A stretch of 64,000 bases of DNA from a virus, in IMG/VR virus record IMGVR_UViG_3300045988_037736, positions 1-64,000 of that record; one strand, written 5' to 3'. Both the position numbers and the translations under genes were made by a program. Each line of letters opens with the position of its first letter. Position 1 is the stretch's first letter. This document shows positions 19,161-64,000 of the stretch, piece by piece. Under the pieces are notes generated by a model. The model did not search any database, was not told the origin of the DNA, and saw nothing but the letters and a program-made list of their open reading frames with translations.

Positions 19161-19352
19161 ATGGTAGGAAATTTTTACATATATCCAAAGAATGGACATA
19201 CTTATAGGGTCTTACAGGAAGTAAAGATGAAAGACCCTACTACAGGAGAATGGATTCCAGCAGTTATCTATACTGATGGAGACTCTGCTTACTGTAGAGC
19301 AAAAGAAGATTTTATAAACAAATTCAAACTGAACAACAATGAGCAAGTTTAG
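19161..19352 (+). CDS. hypothetical small protein
   Basis: 63-aa ORF that terminates with TAG (19350-19352). Confidence 0.3.
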   Translation: MVGNFYIYPKNGHTYRVLQEVKMKDPTTGEWIPAVIYTDGDSAYCRAKEDFINKFKLNNNEQV

Positions 19353-19767
19353 ATGCACCAAGGATTTTTACTATGAGGATGTACTTATAGCAGCCAAGGG
19401 TGACATAGTTGAAATATCTAATAATAGTCTTGTAAATGCTTCAAGGGATACAACATGTACAAAGTGGGGTAACATACGGGACCATATCACTACAAACTCC
19501 TTTGTAGAAGTTAAAGAGACTAAAGCAGATATGGTCAATCATCCTAATCACTATACATGGCTTAAAGGCAAATGTGGAATTGAAGTCATAGACATTACAA
19601 GATGGCTTGACTTTGACACAGGCAATGCTGTCAAGTATCTGCTCAGAGCAGGACACAAGTCAGAAGAGGGAATAACAGATAGAGAGAAAACCATTCAGGA
19701 CTTGAAGAAGGCTGTCTGGTACATAAATGATAAAATAAAGCAACTAGAAGATGGGAATCAACATTAG
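19339..19767 (+). CDS. hypothetical protein
   Basis: 142-aa ORF that terminates with TAG (19765-19767). 'GNAVKYLLRAGHK' resembles a conserved phage-domain signature, but the family is not confidently recognised. Confidence 0.35.
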   Translation: MSKFRCTKDFYYEDVLIAAKGDIVEISNNSLVNASRDTTCTKWGNIRDHITTNSFVEVKETKADMVNHPNHYTWLKGKCGIEVIDITRWLDFDTGNAVKYLLRAGHKSEEGITDREKTIQDLKKAVWYINDKIKQLEDGNQH

Positions 19768-19924: not shown

Positions 19925-20092
19925 ATGGCACAGTATATAATGTGTGAAAAATGCAAGAAAGTAGTAGAGTATAAGCCCGAAACAAGGTATGAAGGAGGTA
20001 TCTCTACCACTATCTTTAAGTGTCCTGAATGTGGACATGTGAAAGAAAGCAGTGTTAACCATATTCATTATGGAAATGATGGAAAGAAATAG
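19925..20092 (+). CDS. small Zn-ribbon protein (55 aa)
   Basis: The two Cys pairs are 'CEKC' and 'CPEC'. It ends with TAG and is below the ORF-track cut-off. Confidence 0.3.
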   Translation: MAQYIMCEKCKKVVEYKPETRYEGGISTTIFKCPECGHVKESSVNHIHYGNDGKK

Positions 20093-20630
20093 GAAACTTA
20101 GACTGTTAGTCACCTCAGAATGCCCTAACAGGTGTCCTATGTGCTGTAATAATCAATTTGACTTTGACCAGTTAGAAAGGGTCAAGGACTTTGATTATGA
20201 TGAAATCATGATTACAGGAGGTGAGCCTTTGCTATACCCTGATAAGGTAGAGGAACTTGCCAGGTCTATAAAGGTATGCAACTCTATTATATATCCTGAA
20301 GAGAATACTCCTAAAATCTATGTGTACACTTCTGTTGCATCATATTTGGCTTTCAGACAGGTACTTAGAGAGGTGGATGGCATTGTACTTACTCCTCACA
20401 GTGGAAGAGATGTGCAGCAGTTCCTAAAGCTCAATGATGTACTAAAGTTGCACCTGAGATTTAATGAATTACGCCCTTCACTTAGGCTCAACCTCTTTAA
20501 GAACATCAAGAAGATGCTCCCTGAAGATATTGATTTGTCGTTATGGCAAGTTAAAGATATGGAATGGGTCAAGGACTGTCCTGTTCCTAAGGGAGAAGAC
20601 TTTAGAAGATTGCCTACTTTATGGACATAG
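20070..20630 (+). CDS. small radical SAM enzyme (QueE/NrdG-like family)
   Basis: 'SECPNRCPMCC' is a CxxxCxxC motif. 'ITGGEPLL' is the SAM-binding GGE motif. The ATG at 20070 is preferred over the GTG at 20052. It ends with TAG (20628-20630). Confidence 0.5.
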   Translation: MEMMERNRKLRLLVTSECPNRCPMCCNNQFDFDQLERVKDFDYDEIMITGGEPLLYPDKVEELARSIKVCNSIIYPEENTPKIYVYTSVASYLAFRQVLREVDGIVLTPHSGRDVQQFLKLNDVLKLHLRFNELRPSLRLNLFKNIKKMLPEDIDLSLWQVKDMEWVKDCPVPKGEDFRRLPTLWT

Positions 20631-21444: not shown

Positions 21445-21631
21445 TATGGAAAAGTTAGTAGTAATTGACTTTCTATGTCAGGAGGTTGAAGTTCATATCT
21501 ATAACATATCTTCTGATATAGAAGTTGATGAGGAGTTCATTGAGAAGTTGGGACATGATACCAACCATTGTCAGTGGGCTTTCGGAACAAAAGTAGACAT
21601 AGTAAAACATAAAGGAAAAATACTGAAATGA
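21419..21631 (+). CDS. hypothetical small protein
   Basis: 70-aa ORF. Confidence 0.3.
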   Translation: MASNGDSNNMEKLVVIDFLCQEVEVHIYNISSDIEVDEEFIEKLGHDTNHCQWAFGTKVDIVKHKGKILK

Positions 21632-21897
21632 AACTATTACAATTCAAAGCAAACTGGTGTGGTCCTTGCAGGCAGCAGACCAAAGAGTTTGAGGAGAACC
21701 CTGTAGATGTAGAGGTTGTAGCTATTGACATTGATGAAGATGAGGCTGAACTCTCTACTAAGTATGGGATTAGGAGCATTCCTACAATGATTCTCATAGG
21801 AGACAATGATGAAATGTTGCATAGGTGGACTGGCTACACTAAATCTAGTACTATCAATGAGTTCATCAATGAATCAAGAGGAATTGCAGCTCCTTAG
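21628..21897 (+). CDS. trx: thioredoxin
   Basis: The 'WCGPC' active site is at residues 10-14 of an 89-aa ORF. It terminates with TAG. Confidence 0.7.
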   Translation: MKLLQFKANWCGPCRQQTKEFEENPVDVEVVAIDIDEDEAELSTKYGIRSIPTMILIGDNDEMLHRWTGYTKSSTINEFINESRGIAAP

Positions 21898-43021: not shown

Positions 43022-44410
43022 TTACATACCACTAGATGCATCATCATCTGCTACTGTAGCAGGGGTTGATGAGCTACTCACCTTAGGAACAAGCCAGAAG
43101 TGGTCATCTACAGTTGTCTGTGTCTTCACAGCAATCTCTATCTCATTTACATCATAGCCAGTTCCTGCCAATCTTCTCCTTACATACTGTTGTTGAGTAG
43201 GACTCAACTGACTAAATTGTATATATTGGACATCTCCTGGGATAACATAACCTTCTTTATCCTCCTTATCCCCTCTAGAGTCAGGATTAGAAGCTTGTGC
43301 ATTATCTGCTCTCCAGTGAATGTTACCTAATGGCTTTCTTTGCGCTTTAGCTTTTGCAACTTCAGCAGCTGTTGGAGTAGGTGTTGGAGTAGGTGTTGTA
43401 GATTTCCATGTTACTCCATCAGACTGTAAAATTTCAGTCCATTGCAGCTTACCATTACTATAGAATTTAGTCTTGCCATCAGCAGAAATATAATAAGGTT
43501 TAGCTCCTGAAGCAATACTATCCTTCTCCTTAGCATACTCAAACTGGTCTCTTTGTAGCTGTACTGAGGCTGCTTGATTAGCAAGAGACTGTCTTTGTGC
43601 AGCATTGATATACTCGCCATTCTCAGTAAACTGATAGGTAGGCTTAGCAAGACCTGCATACATACCAGTAGTAACACTACTTAGAACTTGCTGTCTTGCA
43701 GCATCTCCCCAATCAGCAACATTGGCAAGTTCATCATCCATTATCTGTCTGAACCCTTGTAGCTTTGTTCTAAGAGCTTCTGATATATTTGGATTATTAA
43801 GCTGGTCATTTACTACAGCATAGAACATCTCAGGACTCATGCCATTCTGCTGAGTTATCTGATATTTCTGACCACCAAGAACTGTCTTAAATTCAGGGTC
43901 ACTGAATAATGACTTACCTAATGCTTCTGCTTTTGCAGATGTTCTTGCAAGTATATCCTTACCACTTACATAATCCTCACTTACTGTCTTTCCATGTAAG
44001 AAATCATCAAGGGAGAGATTCTCAACCTTGAATATAGCTGAGTTATCTCTTGCCCTTGTATCTCTCCTATATTTTATAGCTTCCTGTCTGGCAGCATCTG
44101 CTCTTGCAATAGGAGTAATCTCCTTTGCATATCTTCTTTTGAGACCAAGGAGCTGCCTTCTGTTAGCCATTGTCATTCCTCTACTGAAGTCATCAGTAAC
44201 AGTTTCTAAATCCTTAGCATATCTACTAAACATTGCATAGGCTTCAGGACTATTCTCCTGTGTTGCAATATCTCTGAATGCCTCAGTCTGAGTTGCAAGA
44301 TTTGCATACTGCTCTTCAGCTTCATTATAAGCTTTGGTGTAATCCTCTAGAGGCTTTACCAGCTGCTCATATGTAAAAGGATTAAACCTACTATTTACAA
44401 CTATATTCAT
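43022..44410 (-). CDS. hypothetical virion protein (462 aa)
   Basis: It contains a 'TPTPTPTPT' linker. It is separated from the upstream gene by TAA in the same frame. Confidence 0.35.
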   Translation of the reverse strand: MNIVVNSRFNPFTYEQLVKPLEDYTKAYNEAEEQYANLATQTEAFRDIATQENSPEAYAMFSRYAKDLETVTDDFSRGMTMANRRQLLGLKRRYAKEITPIARADAARQEAIKYRRDTRARDNSAIFKVENLSLDDFLHGKTVSEDYVSGKDILARTSAKAEALGKSLFSDPEFKTVLGGQKYQITQQNGMSPEMFYAVVNDQLNNPNISEALRTKLQGFRQIMDDELANVADWGDAARQQVLSSVTTGMYAGLAKPTYQFTENGEYINAAQRQSLANQAASVQLQRDQFEYAKEKDSIASGAKPYYISADGKTKFYSNGKLQWTEILQSDGVTWKSTTPTPTPTPTAAEVAKAKAQRKPLGNIHWRADNAQASNPDSRGDKEDKEGYVIPGDVQYIQFSQLSPTQQQYVRRRLAGTGYDVNEIEIAVKTQTTVDDHFWLVPKVSSSSTPATVADDDASSGM

Positions 44411-44413
44411 ATG

Positions 44414-47104
44414 TTAGAATGTTAAACCTCTTTTCTTTCTTTTAATCTTACCACCATAAGCTTCCTTTTGAACAGGAGCATAAACTCCATGTCTACTAGC
44501 CCATGTTCTCCATTTTCTATCAACTTTCTCCCTACCAATATCTCCAAGAGAACTGAAGATGTTTGATAAGTTATCAGAGATAGCTTGTTCTCTTGCAAGT
44601 CTAGCTCTTGACCTTATATCAGCAGCAGCCATTGTACCTCTTAATGAGAAGTCTCTAGCTCTTGATAATGCTTCTTGGTTGGCTATATCAGCTTGCAGGA
44701 ATCCTTGGGAGTTCTGAATATTTGTACCTCTATTGAACTCTTCAACTTGATTCCTTTGAGCAAGGTTATATTCTTCAGCCTGTCTTGCTAAAGCACCAAG
44801 CTGGTTTAGATAGTTATTATCAGCAGCAAGAATGCCTGCCATTGCAGTGGCTCTGTTACCTCCTGAAGTATTTAGTAGAGACCTTCTTGAGGCACCTGCC
44901 TCTGCATTCATCTTGTTAATGTAGTAATCCCTATCAAATGGTCTATAAGTTAGGTAGTTACCAATAGGTCTATACCTTACAGGTCTGTAAGCACCTTTAC
45001 CACTGCTTGCTTCAAGTATGGCTGAGACATCACCATCATCAGGCTTTGTAAACAATGAAGTTCCAAGACCTATGGCAGAGCCTAAGATAGGCATATACCT
45101 CATCCAATTATCATAGTTGGGGTATTCACCTCCATTATCAGTAAGGTCAGGGGCTTTCTCATCAGTAGGAGCTACAGCAGGTCTTTCCTTATAGAATAGG
45201 TCTGTATAATCTGTATCTCCTTCACTACTTGTTCCTGTCCTTACATACTGATATGTTCCAGTTGTTGGGTCATAGTCAGGAATAAGTAGGTCTTCCAAAG
45301 GAGTGCCACTAGCATCTGTTCTTCCTGTAAGATACATCCTCTTACCAGTCTTTCTTGGAGCTACTGGAACTGGACTACCTGCAAGGTCTATTCCTGCGTG
45401 CATACCACCCCAACTCTTGTCAGCTGTCCTTGAAGAGAAGATGTCTTTGGTAAGACCCTCTAGAGTAAGAGGCACATATCCTCTTCTTCCTTCATTATAC
45501 CTATTAACTGATTCAACATACCTAGGTAGCCATTGATTTACCTCATCACTTCCCCAGTTATTGATGACATAGTTCCTTCTTGTCATAAATGGAGAGTTAT
45601 CTCCATACATAATATCCCAGTCAATAGAGCCATTTGACTTATAGGGATTGAATCCTTCTTGACCAAAAGTAAGACCTGGAGTAGAGTTATTATAATTGAG
45701 AGTCTGCATCCAGCTACCTGTTTCATACAGGTGACCTCCTCTCGCAAACTTTCTCTCTTCTTTTCTTTCCCTTACCTGCTCCTGTACTTCCATCAACTTA
45801 GACATGCTGTCTATCATTCCTGCCCTACTTATAGGGTCATTAGGCCTCTCTTCAGATTCTTTGCTCATTTGAATAGCAGCATCTGCAAAGGTGAGAGGTT
45901 TTGTTCCTCTTAGTTTATATTTCTTTCTTACTGCTTTTGGAACTCTTAGTCTGTTACTAAATACATAATCATTGAAGATAACTTCTCCCTCTTCTACAAG
46001 GTTAGGAATGCCTTCAGCATCCATTCCCATAGGAACTCCTTCATTAGGGTTTTCTTCATGTGTACCTCCATTACCCACAAGAACAAGTCCTGTATCAAAG
46101 TCAGCTCCATGTGTCATAAGGTCTCCTCCAAAGGCATGATGCCACTTAGCAGCGTTCTAAGCAAATATAGCTCTCTTTCTAGTTAAAGGATTTTTACTAT
46201 GGGTTAATTCCTCTGTAGTCTTTCCTGTTCTCTTCTTAGTAGCATTGAACTTACCTCTATTCTCTGGGTTAATATGTATTCCTCCACCTTCTGCAAAGTA
46301 CAATGGACCTCCATATGAGGCTATGTTTCTAAGTATATCCCTCTTCCTAGTCTATCCTATATTATACTGTGCATTTTCTAAAGAAGAACTAACATATTGC
46401 CTAGCAGTATCAGCTCTTTTGCTCATATCCTAATATAAATCATCTATATCATGACTAAATGCACCCTAACTGCCTAAATCATCATGATTAAAGTATCCAA
46501 CTGTTGGAGCAGTAGCCATCTCCTAAGCTAAAGCATCATAATCAGTAGCACTTGATTTAAACTGTCCAGCCTGGGATATTTGATTATTTAAAGAACTTAT
46601 AAGTTTTTCATTTCTTTCAGAACCAAATAAGTTATTAGTAACTCCTCCAAGTAGCTAACTTGCTCCCATTACTATACCCCCAACCATTGGGTTTACAGAC
46701 ATTAAGGCTCCACCTACAGTTGAGCCTATACTACTAATTCCATTTCCTACTGCACTAGACCTTTTTCCTCCAATTACATTACCTACAATTGAACCAGTTA
46801 AGGCACTTCCTAGTCCTATACCCTGTTTGCCCAATTGAGTAAGTCCTAAGGATGGATTAGTAGTTCCAGATGGTGGAAGAGGAAGGGTTGCTGAAGCAGC
46901 AGTTGGTTGAGTAGTTTTAGTAAGAGCTTGCAGCCCTGTTGATATAGCTTCTCCAGGCATAGTTTCTCTAATACCAGGCATAGAAAAAGCATCATCCATA
47001 CCTGGTATTCCAGCTAGATAATCAGGAGTACCTCCCCATGCAAAATAATTATTCCTCCCAAAAAGGAGTTTATTTGTTCTTTTTTTAATAAGTTTCTTTG
47101 CCAT
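44414..47104 (-). CDS. large structural protein read through 6 in-frame TAG codons (~896 codons)
   Basis: The 149-aa and 567-aa ORFs are in the same frame. The 537-nt spacer 46118-46654 contains TAG at 46157, 46352, 46430, 46466, 46523 and 46655 as its only stops, with no TAA or TGA. The N-terminus is Gly-rich. It ends in TAA. Confidence 0.5.
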
Positions 47105-47167
47105 CTAAATGAATTTTGTATGCAAATGTAGCAAAAATATCCCACTAATACAATAGTATAATACAAT

Positions 47168-47209
47168 TAATTAAAAAGGTGTAAGGTTTTTCTTACACCT
47201 TTTTAATTA
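47168..47209. terminator. long perfect hairpin at the 3' end of the TAG-containing tail-fiber-like gene
   Basis: A 19-bp perfect stem 'aattaattaaaaaggtgtaag/cttacacctttttaattaatt' with a 6-nt loop 'gttttt'. It is AT-rich on both sides and overlaps the TAA stop at 47207-47209. Confidence 0.6.
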
Positions 47210-50200
47210 CATAGAGTACTTAGTAGATACATTATATATTGTCACTCTCTAGTTTTTATGTGAGGCACTCCCTAGAGTTATTTCACTCCATGGATTTCTA
47301 ATCCTTGCCCTACCATAGTGCCTTATAACATCTTTACCATCTTGTGCTACATAAGGAGACCTAGGAATATTAATCCTCCATATATTAAACTTCTTCCTTA
47401 TATCTCTACTATTAGTGAGGTCAGTATAAGCTTTCTAATAGTCATTCTCTGCTTGGATAAAATCAAATGGCTTATCAGAATTATCCTTTTGGTCAAAGTT
47501 CCGTACTTCAGCATTAACTTCCACTGTGTCAAAAATTTTTGTGTAAGGAGAATTACCATTAGATATATAAGTGAAACTAAATGGTTTAAAGTTACCATAG
47601 AACTCATTATATACCCCAGTGAAGTTCTCCCATAGCCTAACTTTATCCTATTCCTATTTTATAGAGTAAAAACCACCTTCAAAGTCAAACATACCTTCAG
47701 TTTCACCATAACTTAAAAAGGAAGTGAACTAGTTAAGCTTAGTTGAGAAACATAAAGCTTCTTCGCCATGAGCTGGAGAGAAATATACATCCCCATTCAT
47801 ATTATCAACAAAGCTTCTTACTCCCATTCCTGTAGGAGTCCACTCTGATAAGTCAACATCATTCTTAACCCACTAACTCATTCCTGAAAGCTCACTTACA
47901 TTTACTAATTCCTAACCATATCTATAAATACTTTTGGACTCGTTATCTATGAAGAATAGACCTGTTGAGGTAGGAATAATAGACCATTTATTAGCACATC
48001 CAATAGTAGAGGATAGAATCCTGAACCCATCTACTCTGTTTGAATTTCCTATCTCAATAGGTACTCCGTCTGTAGGATTGAGCTATACTCTAGAATTAAA
48101 CATAATCTAGCTAATAGATTTTTCCTAGAAGCCAATAAGAGTATCATTGATGGAGGTTAGACATGTTACAGACCCTTTATCAGCAGGAAGGTCTAAGGTA
48201 CTAGCTAAAGTGACATTAGTCCATGGGTCAATTATAGACTAGGGATTTTTCTTTAAGGACCATGCTACCTAGTAAGGAAATGTATCTATTTTATAATAGT
48301 CCTTGTCTAGTGTTCTGTAGTTAAAGAAGTTATCTAACTAAGAGTATACTTCATTTATCTTATAAGAGTCAGGAGTAATGTCGAAGTTGGATAGCTGCCC
48401 TCTTTTAGTATCGTATCTTCCATCAAGATTAATATGTGACTCAAGCATAAATGAACCTATTTCTACTATCTAATTAGTATCATCATCTGCAAAAGGATAA
48501 GTCTTTACACAATCATATCTTGTACACCATGTATCCCCATAGGCATAAGGAATCGTAATTATCTTATGTGGAGTTGATACAAGAGGAACTGACTCACTAC
48601 TTGGAACCCATAAGTTATTTTTGATAGCTTCATCCGATTTACCTCCAAACCTAGTGTCTGGGTCAACCCACTATGTTAATTCAGCTATAGGTAATGTGGG
48701 GGAATAATCTTTATCCTCTTCAAGTAACTACAGAGTGCTATTCTGGATGGTAAACGTATTATCTGTATTATCTGTAGATGGCTCTGAATACATTTTATAA
48801 GATGTAATACCAACTATATTTCCGAGAGATACCTTTAAGTTTAATAATACCTAATCCCCAAGATACTAAAAGTTATCATGACCATCCTGTAAGTTTTCAA
48901 AAGGACCCCATTTTATTGGCCCCGCATTCTGAAGAACTCCTACCCACTCACCATTTACATAGTGATGATAGATTATACATCCTTTCTTCACTAAAACAGT
49001 CACTTTAGTTCCTGAGTTTTGTACCTGCCAATACCCTACTTCTCCTATCTTTACCCTTTTAACCAATACACGCTTAGCTATGGGTCCAATGTAAGCCATT
49101 ACAATCTGATAGGTTCCTAGAGCAGTCACACTTGTATCGTCAACATCTAGTACTAAGTTCCCCTCTTTGTTATAAGTCCCATAAAAGGTTTTTGAGCCTA
49201 TAAATGAAAGGATAGGATATGAAGTACTGGTAGAAGTATTATTCTCCCATCCAGAGGGGGTATACTATGAAGTTATAGTCTCACCAGTAACAGAAGTGTA
49301 TGGTAGTACTGGAATAACCTTAGGGTTATCCTCATCATATAAAGAGAATACTAAGTGAGGAGATGATTTATACTTCATTCTTACTGACTCCCCAGAAGTA
49401 GGTACATTAGTAGGGGATACTTGTGAAATACTATCATCAGTACCAGCATAAATAGGATAAGCTGATGTGGCTGATACAATATCATCTACATTTCCAAAGT
49501 ATAGTACATCCTAGTCTAAATGTGGAACACGAACAGTTAAGCCTGTAACCTCTTTAGAAGAGAATAACTTAGGAGTTGTAATTTTAATATTGTGGTTATT
49601 AGAGTTAAAAAAAGTTGACTTACTTTCAAAATACTTTAAATTGGAAATAATCTTCCATTTTAGTATAGCTGTTCTATTTCCGGATTTCTCTATAATCTCA
49701 GGAGACCTGACAATATCATTATTTAGTGAGCCTGTTCTATGCCAAGGATAAACTAAATATTTAACAATACCTGTCTTATCATCATCTAAAAAATCCCCTC
49801 TTAGTATTTTATCTTCAAAACAACATGATGATACAAATCCTCCATTAACAGTAGTATTAGGAGTAGTACAGTTCACTGGAAATCCTACAGGATGATGTAT
49901 AAATCCTCCAGCCTGAGAACTAGCTTTAGAGGTCACTGCTAAATCTATATCTCCATACAATCCATGTAGGCTAGCGGCTCCAACAATATTTAGCCTTGCT
50001 CCTTCTAATTGAGTAGTATTTATATAGGACCCATACTCAATTTCTGGGGAATGTAAAGTAACTAAGTTACTATCAACAGCAAAAGTTGAATAATGAGACT
50101 TTATACCATCAGAGGGAGAAATAATTTCCTATATTGACTTATTGGAATCTCCTGGCAGAGATGACTATATTTCAGCACTTCTATTACCTCCACTGAAAAG

Positions 50201-51676
50201 TGTATAATTATGTTTATACTAAATAGTCGACCCCTAATCTATCGAGGTAGAGGTTTCTTTTGGCTTTCCATCTACATATACAGGAGATGGCCTAAAGAAC
50301 CAAGATGACATTGCATATGGGTTATTCATGTGCCTTCCTCTCACACTGTAGACAGTAGGATTTAAAACTCCCTAACATATAATATTTCTCTCCGCTGGCT
50401 TAGGGAAAACAACACAAGTTCTAGCCCTTCTTACTCCAGCTTTTAATAATGAGGCAGTTGCATTAGGGAATAACTAAAGTTCCTTAGTATCCACCCCGTC
50501 AGTAGTGCCCCAAAAATATGAATTATTTAACTCTACATCAAGAAAACCATCACCATCACCATCACTATTCCTTATGACTTTGTTTAATGGAATAGGTTCT
50601 GACCATTCTCCAGTCTTAAACTAAAATTGAACTCCTAATCTATATGTTTCTCCTGCCTTAAAATGACCAGGCTTAAACTATGGTAGATAAGGATAGTATT
50701 TATTTATACCCTAATTATCATAAGTATCTTCGGCTAAAAAACAATCTGTTAACCCTAAAGAGTCCCCATTTTCAGCCTCTTCCTATTGAAGTAATGTAGT
50801 TAGTTCTTTAGTATTTTTCTGAACAGTAATGTTTCCATAAAACATCACTCCTTCTTTGCTAGTGATAGTTCCAGCTAATATTGTTTGTCCCCCAGTATAT
50901 AATAGTTTAGCAGGGTCTTCTATTGAACCAGTAAGACCAGTATCTGTATATTCAATTGTTTTTACCAGCTAATCCTCAGAACCAAACACATCATACCAGT
51001 ATTCTCCTTCAGCACTTTCCTCCTAGCAATCTTTTAAGTCTAAGTCAGCTACAATCTTAACTGTAGGCTATGCGTCTAGTGAAGTTCTATGTATAGAATA
51101 AACCCTTATATAATCAAAGTTATCAACATTTTCTACTTTAATTGTGAAAGAAGTTATAACCTTCTCTTCTGGATTACCAGCTCTATCATAATTCCTTATA
51201 TACTATATGGGAGATACATAGAATATGTTACTTTCTTGCCCATACTTATTAAAGTATGTAAGAGCATATTGAATTACTCCAGGAGAAAATTCTCCATGAC
51301 TGGAACTTCTACCTACCAGTACTCTTTCTTTTAACTATAGGTTCTATACAAAATCAAATGGAGACTCAGCTCTGTATATCCAATTTCCTTTTTCATACCA
51401 CTTTTCTAGATTTTCTATAACTTCCTAGGAAACTCCCTCACTTTTCTATGGATTTGAGAAATTAACTCCGTCTACTATAACTTTACTAGCTATATCTTCA
51501 GGAAGTTTCAACTCTGGGGCAGTTATATTAATAACTCTAGGCTGGTTAATTCCATCTGTCCAATACAACTTATTCACAAGAACTGACTCACTATCCCCTA
51601 ATATTTCTAGAGGGTGATTAGCATCAAGACCTAGCACTCCTTCAAATAGAGTAACTTTAATCCACTCCCCTTTATC
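47207..51676 (-). CDS. very large tail-fiber/tailspike-like protein encoded with 39 in-frame TAG codons
   Basis: A single frame is open over ~4.4 kb (1477 codons). The only in-frame stops are 39 TAG, and it ends at TAA 47207-47209. It joins the track fragments 51446..51637, 49511..49960 and 48866..49129. The start is unresolved, because two in-frame TGAs lie upstream at 51677 and 51713. Confidence 0.5.
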
Positions 51677-51712
51677 TTCATGGAGTCTATATATTCTAGA
51701 TACTTCCTGAGT

Positions 51713-52024
51713 GTCATTCTAACTTACAGTAAATACTACTAAGTATCTATTAAGCACACAATGTCCTACGTACTACCCATCAAAAACAACACCAGTGTCC
51801 GTATTTCCCTTCTCATTAGTGATAGAAAACCCAGTATCACTATCCCTATTAGTAAGTCTCACATTTAAAGCATCCCATAAAAAAGACTCATCTTGTCTTG
51901 ATGGGTGAACATCTCTCCTTAGGCCTTTAAATATATGATTATCTGAATACATCATGTTAATATAATTAATGAAGTTTGATATACTCCTTAGAACCAAGAG
52001 TTTTAAACCCTTTGCTATGCTCAT
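51713..52024 (-). CDS. small hypothetical ORF, boundaries uncertain
   Basis: The 83-aa track ORF ends with TAG at 51773. It would extend 20 codons to TGA at 51713 if the TAG is read through. It overlaps the upstream gene's end. Confidence 0.2.
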
Positions 52025-52664
52025 TAGTCCTGGAGATTAAAGTATTCCAAGAATTAGTGAAAGATTGGAGTTGGTCAATAGAGGGCCTAACAAGGTCAGA
52101 CTGAGCTTGACCCACTGCCCAAGCATATTGTTGTTCTGCGTGTTGCAGAACCTGTTGAGTTATCCTACCAAGCTCAAACTGAACTGTAAAATGTTTTACC
52201 TTTATAAATAGCTCAAGTGCTTCCTCAAAAGAACCATTCTCTGGTATGAGAGGGAATCCTTCTTCATCTGTCGAGAAAGCTCTATAAGCTACTTCTATAG
52301 TTCCTTCCTTCATAGAAGTAAAAATACAACTTCCCTGTAGTTTATAGGTAAGGTCATTATCTCTTGTCTTATCAGGACTCATATGAAATGAATCAGTAGA
52401 GTATCTGAATACTTCATGAAGTACTCCATTACAGTTATGACCAACTGCTCTTACCTGTATCATTTCATAGAAGTCACAAGGTAGCTTACCTCTATAATTC
52501 TCTATCTCAACCTTCTCTGTTTTCTCAAGGAATATTGAGGGCATACCTACCTTCTGTATGAACCTGACAGCATAATTGACTGCCCTTTCTAAAGATAAAT
52601 CTTGTAGCAAGGGATTATCCATCAGGTTATCAAGAACTTGTCTTATGCTTATATATTTTGTCAT
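51966..52664 (-). CDS. hypothetical protein
   Basis: 232-aa ORF ending in TAA. Confidence 0.4.
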   Translation of the reverse strand: MTKYISIRQVLDNLMDNPLLQDLSLERAVNYAVRFIQKVGMPSIFLEKTEKVEIENYRGKLPCDFYEMIQVRAVGHNCNGVLHEVFRYSTDSFHMSPDKTRDNDLTYKLQGSCIFTSMKEGTIEVAYRAFSTDEEGFPLIPENGSFEEALELFIKVKHFTVQFELGRITQQVLQHAEQQYAWAVGQAQSDLVRPSIDQLQSFTNSWNTLISRTNEHSKGFKTLGSKEYIKLH

Positions 52665-54617: not shown

Positions 54618-55286
54618 TTAACTACTATATTTCCATATAAACCCGCCAGAGGTTTTGTGCTCCCCATTTAGGCATTTATACAAGGAAGCTTCAGCTATAC
54701 CAGTACATAAACTAGCTTCCTTAACTGAAGGAAAGGACTGTATCAACTCTTCTTCTAAAGAAAACTGTAGTACGCCCTTTATGGTTTTAGCCTTTATTAT
54801 CTTATCAGACCAAGTACAGGGTCTTCCTTTCAGAGACTTACTGATATTATTTCTCCATTCTTCTGTAAGCTTTACTCCCCTACGAACTAATGATAGCTTC
54901 TTTTTAACCTCATCAGTTCTCTTCTTTCCTCTGTTAGCTATAGAAATTCTATTTTTGGACTCTGTAGAAAATTTGTAGCCAACGGTGGAGTCCCCTCCTA
55001 TTGTGCAATTATATCCATGCACATAAGAGTTATATAGTCCTATGTAATATACTTCCAGCTTGTCAAGTTCTTCTTTAGCCTGCTTTTTAGAACTAAATAT
55101 TCTCTTTTCTAAAACTTCATATTTGAAGGACTCCAAACCATATTTAATTCTAGCCCTATTTATTTTAATTCCAGCATATGGCCCGACAGTGTTCCAATGC
55201 TCCCTTCGTATTTTCTCGTTAGTAGTCTGACCTATGTAAGATTTTCCACTTGGAGAAACATATCTATATATAACACCTTCAACCAT
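54618..55286 (-). CDS. GIY-YIG homing endonuclease with NUMOD3 repeats
   Basis: The GIY-YIG core is 'GVIYRYVSPSGKSYIGQTTNEKIRREHW'. Repeats are 'KNRISIANRGKKRT', 'KKKLSLVRRGVKLT' and 'RNNISKSLKGR'. Confidence 0.65.
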   Translation of the reverse strand: MVEGVIYRYVSPSGKSYIGQTTNEKIRREHWNTVGPYAGIKINRARIKYGLESFKYEVLEKRIFSSKKQAKEELDKLEVYYIGLYNSYVHGYNCTIGGDSTVGYKFSTESKNRISIANRGKKRTDEVKKKLSLVRRGVKLTEEWRNNISKSLKGRPCTWSDKIIKAKTIKGVLQFSLEEELIQSFPSVKEASLCTGIAEASLYKCLNGEHKTSGGFIWKYSS

Positions 55287-57906: not shown

Positions 57907-58680
57907 TTATCTACTTTGAGTTACAATACCCATATTAGTCTGTGATGTCTGACCAAGAGCAACCTGTGAAGTAAGGTCTCCAATATAAGCAGCCTTAGCT
58001 AGCTCACAAGCTCTTTGAATAATCTCTGGAAATAGTATTGGGTCAAGCTCACAACATTCCTCACTACTCTCACCTCCTATAGTAAGACCGTCAAATGTAC
58101 TTAGTCTAATAGCTTTAGGACGTCTAACAAATCTATAGGTATAACTAATTAAGGAATCCTAATATCCTAAAATTAATTCAACTTTCTTTCTATTACTGTC
58201 AGAAATAAGCAATCTCCAAGCTTGGTTTTTTAGAGGATATTTGTAAGGTTTGCTAGTGAGTCTATTATACTCCAAGTAACTAATAGGGATAACAGTTAAT
58301 CCAGTTTCGTTATTACCTCTCTAAACTGTAACATACTCGTTGATAAACATGAATATATCATCTTGAAGGATGATACTTTTACTGCTTTTTCTATTGTCAA
58401 AGTGTGCATCTAAAAAAGAGTCTGCATCTGCTATTGTACGGTCTCTCATGAGCATAGAGAAATCAATCTACCTTATCTCACTTCCGTCAAAACCTTCTTG
58501 AGACTTATTAGTTTTTGGACTAAAATAAGCTTTTACTACTTCATCTTGAGCCTTAGTTAGAAATACAGACTTCTCATATTCATCCAAACCAGGAGCCTGA
58601 TTACTTGTAATGCTGTTGTAAATTATATCAAACTCATTACTAAATTCCTAATTTCTTATTCTTCTTTCTTCCGCAGTCAT
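57907..58680 (-). CDS. TAG-containing paralogue of the preceding gene (257 codons, 4 in-frame TAG)
   Basis: The frame is open from ATG 58678 to TAA 57907. Its only stops are TAG at 58648, 58468, 58321 and 58159. It translates to 'MTAEERRIRN*EFSNEFD...LDEYEKSVFLTKAQ', homologous to 57209..57904. Confidence 0.5.
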
Positions 58681-58719
58681 AAGGTTTTCAATTTGCGACA
58701 TGTAACTTAAAGATTAAAG

Positions 58720-61320: not shown

Positions 61321-61557
61321 TTAAGCATCAATGGTCCAGCCCTTACCTATGAAGGATTCTGAATCAACTCCACTTGCATAGTTAAGATTACCATCTGAGG
61401 TTCTAGCAGTATTGTTTAGAGTATTTTCCAGTTCTCTGAACCCTCTCTTTACTTCTTTTCTTACTTTACCTTTTACAAGTCCATCAAGATTCTTGAAGCC
61501 ATCTGTAAGTGTGAATATAAGACCAAGGTTCTTTAAGAACTCTGTCCTATGTTCCAT
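61321..61557 (-). CDS. hypothetical small protein
   Basis: 78 aa. It is in the same frame as the scaffold-like gene, 3 codons after that gene's TAG. Confidence 0.3.
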   Translation of the reverse strand: MEHRTEFLKNLGLIFTLTDGFKNLDGLVKGKVRKEVKRGFRELENTLNNTARTSDGNLNYASGVDSESFIGKGWTIDA

Positions 61558-61566
61558 TTCATATCT

Positions 61567-62475
61567 CTAAATGGCAGTAAGCATTTCTCCTGTCTCAGGG
61601 TCTTTATATACAGGCTTGGCAAGATTGTCATATATTCTTTGTCTTGTTGCCTTGTCAACTTCTACATCACCAAAGACTTTCTTCTCAGTGAGAATAGATG
61701 TTCTCAGCTTCTCAGCCTGTTCCTTCCTCTTTGCTACTTCTGCCTCTTCCTCTTTCTTGGCATCTTCAATTACTTCCTCATATTTGGACTTGAAGTATTC
61801 CTTGTTGCTTTTCAAAGCCTCTCTTGCATCATCTACATCAGTACCTCCATTAAGGGATTTCTGAACTTCTCTTGAAGCTCTTTCCTTACTGTAACCCCTA
61901 TTAATGAAGTCCTGATATATTAGCTGTTTCCTCAGCTTCTCTCCTTCATCAGTCTCAGCTGCAATAGAGTCATCCTTGATACTGTCAAGATAGTTGATGG
62001 CACCTTCATACTGCCTGATAGTATCAGGTTCCACTCCAACATTGAGAGCCTCATCAATCCTCTTCTGTCTTTCATCAAGACCAGCTTTAATCTGTTGCTC
62101 TACAAGCTCTCTTAAGTCTTCAGGAGTTTCTACTTTAGAAATGGCTTCTTCATCAAGGTCTGGGAAGATACCTTCCTCTGCAAAGGCTTTGGCAATGGAA
62201 GAGTAAATTTTGGGAGAAGTACTGCCTTTGTCAGGGTCAGTATCTTCCTTTTCCTCTGTATCTCCACTACCTACGCTCTCTGGTTTGTCTGTAAACAAGG
62301 AGTCTACATTAACCTCAGTAGTTTCTTTTTCTTTCTTTTCTTTGCCCTCTACGAGCTCATCTTCTTTTTCTTTACCTGTATCATCAGGTGCAGGCTCCTG
62401 TGATGTGTCATCATCTATGAACAGGTTCTCTACCTCAGAGCCTGTCAGAATGTTATCTAGTGATAGTTCTTCCAT
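61567..62475 (-). CDS. scaffold-like highly acidic/charged protein (302 aa)
   Basis: It is Glu/Lys/Asp-rich with predicted coiled coil ('EKEDELVEGKEKKEKETTEV...'). It sits directly upstream of the putative major capsid gene. It terminates with TAG (61567-61569). Confidence 0.35.
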   Translation of the reverse strand: MEELSLDNILTGSEVENLFIDDDTSQEPAPDDTGKEKEDELVEGKEKKEKETTEVNVDSLFTDKPESVGSGDTEEKEDTDPDKGSTSPKIYSSIAKAFAEEGIFPDLDEEAISKVETPEDLRELVEQQIKAGLDERQKRIDEALNVGVEPDTIRQYEGAINYLDSIKDDSIAAETDEGEKLRKQLIYQDFINRGYSKERASREVQKSLNGGTDVDDAREALKSNKEYFKSKYEEVIEDAKKEEEAEVAKRKEQAEKLRTSILTEKKVFGDVEVDKATRQRIYDNLAKPVYKDPETGEMLTAI

Positions 62476-62584
62476 ATTAACTTCTCATTATTAAACTTCG
62501 CTGCAAAGGTAGAAAAAGTTCCTGTATTGTACAATAGTCTAAATAAAAATATTAAGGAAGTATAAATGAAAATGTAAAAATAAA

Positions 62585-63788: not shown

Positions 63789-64000
63789 TTATGCCGCTGA
63801 TGCAGCAGGTGGTGTTATAGCAAGAGTCAGAGAGTCATTTATTGTGTATGAGAAAGCACATCCACAATTTATATTAGACCCAAACTGGTCTCTTCCCACA
63901 TTGGTAAGTGTTACTGTTGTAGGTAGAGCAGTCTGACCCTGGAATGCAACTACAAAGTTTTCAGTAAATAGCTGAGTATGTGCATTGCAACCACACTGAC
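63789..64000 (-). CDS. 3' end of a gene that starts beyond the window
   Basis: The minus-strand frame is open from the window edge to TAA at 63789-63791 (about 69 codons, '...TVTLTNVGRDQFGSNINCGCAFSYTINDSLTLAITPPAASAA'). It is absent from the ORF track because no start codon is in the window. Confidence 0.25.
   Translation of the reverse strand, partial: QCGCNAHTQLFTENFVVAFQGQTALPTTVTLTNVGRDQFGSNINCGCAFSYTINDSLTLAITPPAASAA

Follow-up and report, generated by a model that had tools for sequence, protein, structure and literature searches.

A TAG-interrupted cargo protein gene in a crAss-like phage and the probable trailing end of a TAG-rich cassette

One late gene read through six TAG codons

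The 64,000-nt stretch analyzed here (positions 1 to 64,000 of IMG/VR record IMGVR_UViG_3300045988_037736, below called the window; all coordinates refer to it) belongs to a PhiCrAss001-like crassvirus according to DNA and protein searches, and near-identical DNA was not found in the GenBank phage set. On its minus strand, two standard-code open reading frames (ORFs) of 149 aa (46655..47104) and 567 aa (44414..46117) lie in one shared frame and are one late gene read through TAG, identified by similarity to its homologues as the crassvirus cargo protein 1 gene (cargo-1, or C1) of a PhiCrAss001-like (Steigviridae-type) phage. Translation from 47104 to 44414 gives 897 codons, beginning MAKKLIKKRTNKLL and closed by a terminal TAA at 44414-16. 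The frame holds six internal stops, all of them TAG (codons 150, 194, 213, 225, 251, and 316), and no internal TAA or TGA. The first-pass annotation of the window had already joined the two ORFs through six TAGs, and our translation recovered the same six at the same coordinates. It had placed all of them in the spacer between the ORFs (46118-46654), whereas the TAG at 46655-57, which is the stop of the 149-aa ORF, lies one base outside. Its statement that the remainder of the gene is TAG-free is correct for codons 1-149 and 317-896.

With the TAA-plus-TGA density in the noncoding frames of the window (about 0.048 per codon) as the baseline, a run of 179 codons without TAA or TGA has a chance probability of ~1e-4, and one of 896 codons a probability of ~1e-20. 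That six of six stops are TAG has a probability of ~5e-4, and the six span only 167 of the 896 sense codons (P = 0.0011 under random placement). Because the same six TAGs recur in independent assemblies of this phage from other samples, L003 (99.995% identity) and L004 (99.4%), an assembly or sequencing artifact is excluded.

Homologues of cargo-1 number in the thousands in protein searches. The nearest full-length matches, each a single protein of 840-850 aa, are colinear with the read-through product over 100% of its length and align across the “spacer” without interruption, which bears out the joining of the two ORFs. Two observations had been named as speaking against a joined gene, namely homologues that consist of two genes with a noncoding spacer and the presence of TAA or TGA in the frame; neither was found. 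Among the matches of the gene are PhiCrAss001 gp45 (842 aa) and its cr116_1 homologue (838 aa), both of which stand undivided in their annotations. Residues 323-452 align with positions 1-127 of the 133-position Pfam profile crAss_CARG1 (PF25725) and score 192.5 bits, above the gathering cut-off of 27. In PHROGs, a family for cargo-1 or for cargo protein 2 (C2) was not found. Two entries in public protein sets, P0018 and P0019, consist of the 567-aa piece entered as a complete protein, because standard-code gene calling cuts the gene at its TAGs.

The PhiCrAss001 cargo protein is packaged in the virion, where it spans tail and capsid, and is ejected into the host, according to cryo-electron microscopy and mass spectrometry (PMC10172136). 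The gene described here resembles gp45 in its place between the muzzle gene (gp44) and C2 (gp46), in its portal-binding domain (residues 323-452, versus 425-552 in gp45), in a conserved C-terminal half ending in GLTF/GLTY, and in a Gly-rich, hydrophobic N-terminal segment. It differs from gp45 in overall sequence (only ~38% identity), in its six TAG codons (none in gp45), and in its N-terminal 264 residues, which are of a rare type, 49% identical to the database protein P0140. The order muzzle, C1, C2, and virion RNA polymerase (vRNAP) is that of PhiCrAss001; downstream of cargo-1 are the C2 gene (PF25712, CARGO2) and a gp47-like vRNAP gene encoding 2391 aa.

Upstream, the muzzle protein gene comprises 1582 codons with 40 in-frame TAGs and zero internal TAAs or TGAs; its start at 51955 (MMYSDNH...) was inferred from homologues. 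TAG makes up 65% of its Gln-equivalent codons, more extreme than in cargo-1, and standard-code calling leaves it as a few scraps of 36-149 aa; pieces of it have likewise entered public protein sets. A terminator-like hairpin sits between the two genes, ~60 nt upstream of the cargo-1 start, and the muzzle and cargo-1 genes may perhaps not be simply cotranscribed. Code-aware calling thus restores two large structural proteins, cargo-1 and muzzle.

The features are listed in Table 1, in which the cassette is the divergent segment described below. The relatives compared there and later are L006 (IMGVR_UViG_3300045988_031323), which is TAG-free and of which L027 is another stretch; L014/L023 (IMGVR_UViG_3300045988_064014), which bears the same cassette; L005, an independent relative; L024, a sister phage with the same cassette; and L105, a further relative reached via an ORF of L024 with LAGLIDADG sequence.

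Table 1. Features of the muzzle and cargo-1 region in window coordinates
Feature	Coordinates	Strand or length	Remarks
Muzzle protein gene (PhiCrAss001 gp44 homologue)	47207..51955	minus	PF25731, 796 bits; PF25729, 57.7 bits
Terminator-like hairpin, 18-bp stem, T-rich tail	47168..47209	minus	directly after muzzle stop; consensus scan only
Divergent recombination cassette	46313..51813	5.5 kb	muzzle from ~codon 48, intergenic hairpin, cargo-1 codons 1-264; 45 TAGs
Crassvirus cargo protein 1 gene (C1), by similarity	44414..47104	minus	896 sense codons including six TAGs, then TAA
TAG codon 150	46655..46657	minus	variable column: Gly in L006 type, Asp in P0140
TAG codon 194	46523..46525	minus	conserved Gln: CAG in L006, TAG in L005
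TAG codon 213	46466..46468	minus	variable column: Asp in L006 type, Glu in P0140
TAG codon 225	46430..46432	minus	variable column: Ala in L006 type, His in P0140
TAG codon 251	46352..46354	minus	Thr in L006 type, Gln in P0140; last TAG within cassette
TAG codon 316	46157..46159	minus	conserved Gln: CAG in L006 and L005; outside sharp junction
Cargo-1 codons 265-457, linker and portal-binding domain	45734..46312	minus	L014 ~100%, L006/L005 ~80-90%
Cargo-1 C-terminal part	44414..45733	minus	TAG-free, L006-like (~87%), unlike L014

Decoding and distribution of TAG

The alignments indicate that TAG is a sense codon in this phage, most likely read as glutamine (genetic code 15). Codons 194 and 316 fall in conserved Gln columns and are CAG in L006 at both; the cargo-1 gene of L005 contains only one TAG, at the codon-194 Gln. 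A search for CAA or CAG in homologues at the TAG sites, proposed in the first-pass annotation, therefore succeeded at two of the six sites, both with CAG, whereas the other four lie in diverged columns, in which P0140 has D, E, H, and Q. These residues are compatible with Gln but not diagnostic. Opposite the 40 TAGs of the muzzle gene, eight TAG-free homologues have Gln at 31.6% of positions versus a background of 3.6% (8.9-fold), and the enrichment of residues other than Gln never exceeds 1.3-fold. With TAG counted, the cassette has 4.07 Gln per 100 codons, as opposed to 1.66 without it; the backbone has 4.50. In a late gene at 62484->61321, the TAG codon corresponds to CAA in four related genomes. 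A 2014 work by Ivanova is reportedly among those on the TAG-to-Gln code 15. The use of code 15 in late genes of crAss-like phages, suppressor tRNAs, and the fragmented gene calls that go with them have been described (PMC7886860; 10.1101/2021.08.26.457843; PMC9523058; 10.1101/2022.06.29.495998), and the code has been validated in crAss-like phages by metaproteomics (PMC9523058).

TAG use is very uneven among the late genes. In the muzzle gene together with cargo-1 codons 1-260, TAG accounts for 59% of Gln-equivalent codons (45 TAG versus 31 CAA+CAG), and in all other late genes together for 2.5% (8 versus 315); the difference (45/76 versus 8/323) is significant by Fisher's exact test (p = 1e-30). 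The downstream module of the window has 0 TAGs in ~3,500 codons. In-frame TAGs occur in at least four late genes elsewhere (63114->62611, 62484->61321, 59724->58720, and 58713->57907), and therefore the phage depends on amber suppression whatever cargo-1 holds. This contradicts the picture of a standard-code recipient scarred by a recoded donor; the recipient was itself lightly recoded. GC content is 0.349 in the muzzle gene versus 0.40 in the flanks, and other late genes range from 0.34 to 0.42; because the GC and GC3 contrast of the cassette is modest compared with this spread, composition was not used as evidence.

Recoded codons are confined to the late genes, and the early genes are readable in the standard code. 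Among the plus-strand (early/middle) ORFs of the window, none needs TAG read-through, and the stops of 28 such ORFs are TAA (14), TGA (11), and TAG (3). The three TAG-ending ORFs (19339-19767, 20052-20630, and 21628-21897) each have a backup TAA or TGA within 1-10 codons, and their late read-through would append a short tail only. Individual TAG sites differ between relatives of 95-99% identity: TAG codon 185 of a ring-3/4-like gene (57907-58713, minus) is TGG (Trp) in L022, and TAG codon 306 of the gene at 61321-62484 (minus) is CAA in L020-L023. Such variation shows an ongoing turnover of TAG in the backbone.

We infer that the phage carries an amber suppressor tRNA like that of its sister phages. 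A tRNA(CUA) gene lies between tRNA-Leu(UAG) and tRNA-Thr(UGU) in L024 (1298-1370) and in L105 (4659-4731), the two copies differing at 8 of 73 positions, and the same tRNA array is present without tRNA(CUA) in four TAG-free relatives (L025, L027, L028, and L030). The exact suppressor sequence was found in IMG/VR on the L014 contig only, and two scans of JGI metagenome contigs gave no match to it. In the 10 kb before the window start, there are four tRNAs, none of them with a CUA anticodon. These tRNAs (Arg-CCU, Arg-UCU, Lys-UUU, and Pro-CGG; L017 1212-6805) are on the early strand among early genes, within ~8.2 kb upstream of window position 1 and apart from the large late-strand array. A derivation of the suppressor from tRNA-Gln, considered on the basis of a D-arm likeness, was dropped, as several other tRNAs resemble it at least as closely in global comparison as tRNA-Gln does (0.63-0.67).

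A divergent cassette with junctions inside two genes

Compared with L006, the window shows 86.7% nucleotide identity over 46313->34449 and ~82% over 57000->51813, whereas between these stretches (51813-46313) blastn detects essentially no nucleotide similarity. Maximum chi-square analysis and blastn place the downstream junction at nucleotide 791 of the cargo-1 gene, i.e., at codon 264 and window position 46313, where identity rises from 0.46 to 0.87 versus L006 and from 0.49 to 0.82 versus L005. Identity at third codon positions is 0.1-0.4 (saturated) upstream of this junction and 0.5-0.85 downstream. Faster protein evolution cannot give such saturation of synonymous sites, but a difference in ancestry can. 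The muzzle protein is ~39% identical to every homologue tested, that of L006 included. Because the upstream flank is also L006-like, the cassette is an island and not one side of a single junction. Breakpoints had been predicted near 46118 and 46655; the junctions are instead at ~46313 (codon 264) and ~51813, the latter inside the muzzle gene.

The TAG-rich zone tracks these junctions and not the gene limits. The first muzzle TAG is 38 nt inside the upstream junction, the fifth cargo-1 TAG is ~40 nt inside the downstream one, and the zone crosses the muzzle stop and the terminator-like hairpin. The recombination scar proposed in the first-pass annotation is thus sound insofar as the gene is mosaic and its five upstream TAGs lie in a foreign TAG-rich segment, but the patch that it described is only the trailing edge of a cassette with 45 TAGs.

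A second junction was revealed by L014/L023, which is ~98-99% identical to the window over 54629->45734, with all 40 + 6 TAGs kept (98-99% within the cassette itself). L014 diverges abruptly at cargo-1 codons 427-457, with identity of <=70% beyond, and its downstream module is different. By these comparisons, cargo-1 is a three-part chimera: the cassette supplies codons 1-264, both relatives share codons 265 to ~457, and the rest is L006-like only. Third-position identity is ~0.6 over codons 260-319 versus ~0.78 over codons 320-420, which hints, on marginal evidence, at a softer second junction near codon 320.

The junctions can be placed on the structure of the PhiCrAss001 virion. Residues 1-245 of gp45 are in the tail barrel, where one segment binds rings R1 and R2 and another is probably beside the muzzle, and, inside the capsid, residues 425-552 make up the portal-bound domain (PMC10172136). 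In the alignment, codon 264 of cargo-1 comes after the tail-resident part, and codons 324-457 correspond to the portal-binding domain. Both junctions, at codon 264 and at codons 427-457, are therefore at domain limits. The cassette couples the muzzle gene with the muzzle-adjacent part of C1, and the muzzle and the C1 N terminus may be coadapted. The muzzle gene and the cargo-1 N terminus may travel together because their PhiCrAss001 counterparts adjoin each other in the tail.

Origin of the TAG cluster

The observations are probably best explained by a single code-15 cargo-1 gene whose TAG cluster is the trailing end of a divergent, TAG-rich cassette in a TAG-poor backbone, a reading that we hold with good, though not full, confidence. 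The TAGs cluster because codons 1-264 belong to a 5.5-kb TAG-rich cassette together with nearly the whole muzzle gene. The cassette would have resided for a long time in a heavily recoded lineage and would have been imported into this lineage, where it is a rare allele among close relatives. The sixth TAG may have arisen in place by a CAG-to-TAG change at a conserved Gln, or it may mark the softer junction near codon 320. If the phage carries the suppressor tRNA, translation of its TAG-bearing late genes would have to await expression of this tRNA.

A number of points weigh against this explanation. No muzzle gene of more than ~44% identity was found in IMG/VR except on the contig of L014, and the donor lineage was not identified in IMG/VR or in the protein libraries. 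The gene call behind P0140, the closest protein of the rare N-terminal type, has no in-frame TAGs. The sixth TAG (46157-59) is ~155 nt outside the sharp junction. Within cargo-1 alone, the contrast in TAG share between the N- and C-terminal parts is marginal (5/14 versus 1/18; p = 0.064), and codons 1-149, although part of the cassette, have four Gln codons and zero TAG. No tRNA gene was found in the 64-kb window; the corresponding tRNA region of this phage would be expected ~18 kb past the window end, beyond the scanned stretch. The phage tRNA-Gln does not stand out as the closest match of the suppressor tRNA, and the Gln assignment for this reason rests on the alignments. Finally, the published account of gene-specific TAG enrichment is selection for late expression (10.1101/2021.08.26.457843), which could act alongside, or instead of, ancestry.

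This last alternative holds that the enrichment was built up in place by selection, delaying or throttling translation until the suppressor is expressed, and that recombination is incidental. Borges et al. found that a few crAss families, one tail gene among them, favor TAG over CAA/CAG and read this as regulation (10.1101/2021.08.26.457843); a second TAG-dense block, of tail-fibre-like genes, lies just past the window in relatives, and in L156, an unrelated phage that is also recoded, the muzzle gene is likewise 65% TAG. However, the TAG-rich zone is bounded by junctions (~40 nt inside each) and not by genes, and selection on TAG cannot yield synonymous sites that are saturated in the zone while the flanks are 82-87% identical. 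In L156, moreover, all late genes are TAG-rich, and the cargo-1 TAGs extend over the full length of the gene. We therefore consider selection in place an unlikely explanation of the cluster.

Also improbable, to about the same degree, is an exchange in the reverse direction, in which the cassette would be the older resident and the flanks (cargo-1 C terminus, C2, and vRNAP) would have been replaced lately from a TAG-free phage. In L014, the same cassette is followed by another downstream module, which bears few TAGs (5 in the vRNAP gene), the TAG-free state of the downstream module in the window is as described above, and replacement of the transcription module is documented among close crAss relatives (10.1101/2021.06.01.446427). 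On the other side, the upstream flank (57000->51813) is also L006-like (~82%) and TAG-poor, and most close relatives carry the common muzzle type. Because they mostly carry the common type of muzzle and cargo-1 N terminus, import of the cassette into this lineage is the simpler reading.

A donor was sought with the muzzle protein, a muzzle alignment, the 149-aa N terminus, and P0140, and nothing closer than ~44-49% was found. The longest muzzle segment free of TAG (205 aa) gave no match in a protein search, which also missed the fragment of the phage itself and is therefore little informative. For the N-terminal type, 1.8 billion representative proteins yielded no more than ten weak relatives, the best of which is P0140 (49%), the sole homologue of this type in the cargo-1 comparison. 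L156 was considered as a donor type and rejected, its cargo-1 N terminus being of the common type. This heavily recoded phage, in which every late gene is TAG-rich, the muzzle gene is 65% TAG, and ten TAGs are distributed along the whole length of cargo-1, illustrates the outcome of long residence in a recoded lineage, in contrast to the TAG-free C-terminal 580 codons of cargo-1 here. The TAG-recoded donor lineage of the first-pass annotation was not found, and we infer it from TAG density.

Two further explanations can be set aside. That two separate genes, or a broken gene, flank a noncoding or decaying spacer is highly improbable: the 567-aa fragment stands alone in public sets (P0018 and P0019) and gene callers list the upstream 149-aa ORF, but the alignments refute this reading, because homologues encoded by single genes match the spacer residue by residue. 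The spacer also lacks TAA and TGA and has TAG as its only stop (see above for the chance probabilities); the TAG sites are kept in independent assemblies and in L014, the adjoining essential muzzle gene has 40 TAGs, and loss of the spacer would remove the region joining the N terminus to the portal-binding domain. Least probable of all is an intervening element (group I intron or intein) or programmed frameshift site that is removed or bypassed; introns, inteins, and homing endonucleases abound in crAss-like phages (PMC7886860), and endonuclease genes are nearby (a NUMOD-type ORF at 54618-55286 and a LAGLIDADG ORF in L024), but an intron, intein, or bypass is rejected because Rfam gives zero matches across 44000-52500 and the patch is no insertion relative to homologues, its frame being unbroken with TAG as the only interruptions.

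Both code 15 and modular recombination have been described before in crAss-like phages, and the case is neat rather than surprising. As in other code-15 crAss-like phages, TAG is found only in late structural genes of one strand and aligns with Gln, early genes are readable by either code, an amber suppressor is present in the tRNA array of sister phages, and gene calls are fragmented. The difference is that TAG use here is uneven within the late module (59% versus 2.5%), with a step inside a gene at the junction. Uneven TAG use has been attributed to timing or regulation in the recoding papers; the terms “recombin” and “mosaic” are absent from Borges 2021 (10.1101/2021.08.26.457843) and from the Mgcod preprint (10.1101/2022.06.29.495998), and “recombin” is applied by Yutin 2021 (PMC7886860) to DNA polymerase replacement only. 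The code blocks of Mgcod (10.1101/2022.06.29.495998) similarly separate stretches needing code 15 from stretches readable either way, but they extend over tens of kilobases, change where the strand switches, and have boundaries that are intergenic by design, whereas the cassette boundaries are subgenic and on one strand. Abrupt module replacement among close crAss relatives was described by Gulyaeva et al. (10.1101/2021.06.01.446427). In their modules, as here, identity falls from >80% to unalignable and then recovers, and the source of the replacement was not traced; the L014 junction opens the same RNA-polymerase region. In contrast to their transcription and replication genes, the cassette comprises the muzzle gene and the N-terminal part of C1, both of its junctions are inside genes, and its stop-codon usage is unlike that of the flanks.

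The locus is a clean case in which the density of recoded codons changes stepwise within a gene, and the step coincides exactly with a recombination junction and falls on a structural-domain boundary of the cargo protein. It suggests that module exchange accounts for at least part of the unevenness of TAG use in crAss-like phages, and that code compatibility, i.e., possession of the suppressor tRNA, may restrict the modules open to exchange. In relatives, a second TAG-dense block of 3-4 genes without a Pfam match occupies L024 12400-16292, L020 3431-6396, and L105 15167-19802 (in the sister phage L024, ~3.4-7.3 kb beyond window position 64000), with TAG versus CAA+CAG counts of 3/4, 10/7, and 14/7, and it has no nucleotide similarity to the TAG-free L027. 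TAG density thus coincides with a divergent segment twice, and this second block, unalignable to a TAG-free relative, points toward TAG density as a marker of ancestry. As a tentative generalization, on which we would put rather less than even weight, TAG density may be a heritable ancestry marker, with heavily recoded modules being swapped into lightly recoded lineages at domain boundaries. If this is true, possession of the suppressor tRNA decides the pool of tail modules open to a phage, uptake of an essential gene with 40 TAGs locks the recipient into the alternative code, and uneven recoding of the late module is largely a record of recombination, not of regulatory selection.

An ORF called as 700 aa (L020 76-2475; L024 10001-12400) extends via two TAGs to 799 codons in code 15, and its database form is also truncated. 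Upstream of it is a large late-strand ORF with LAGLIDADG sequences in or fused to it (L024 5407-9900; L022 1-403; L105 10001-12652). A 222-aa ORF at 54618-55286 (minus), with faint matches to NUMOD-type homing endonucleases, falls within a gap (54629-54991) of the alignments to L014 and L020-L022, which are otherwise 94-98% identical, and probably encodes a mobile endonuclease whose gene is present in some strains and replaced in others. The arrangement of the large LAGLIDADG-bearing ORF differs in each relative, and its LAGLIDADG sequences may be intein or intron borne.

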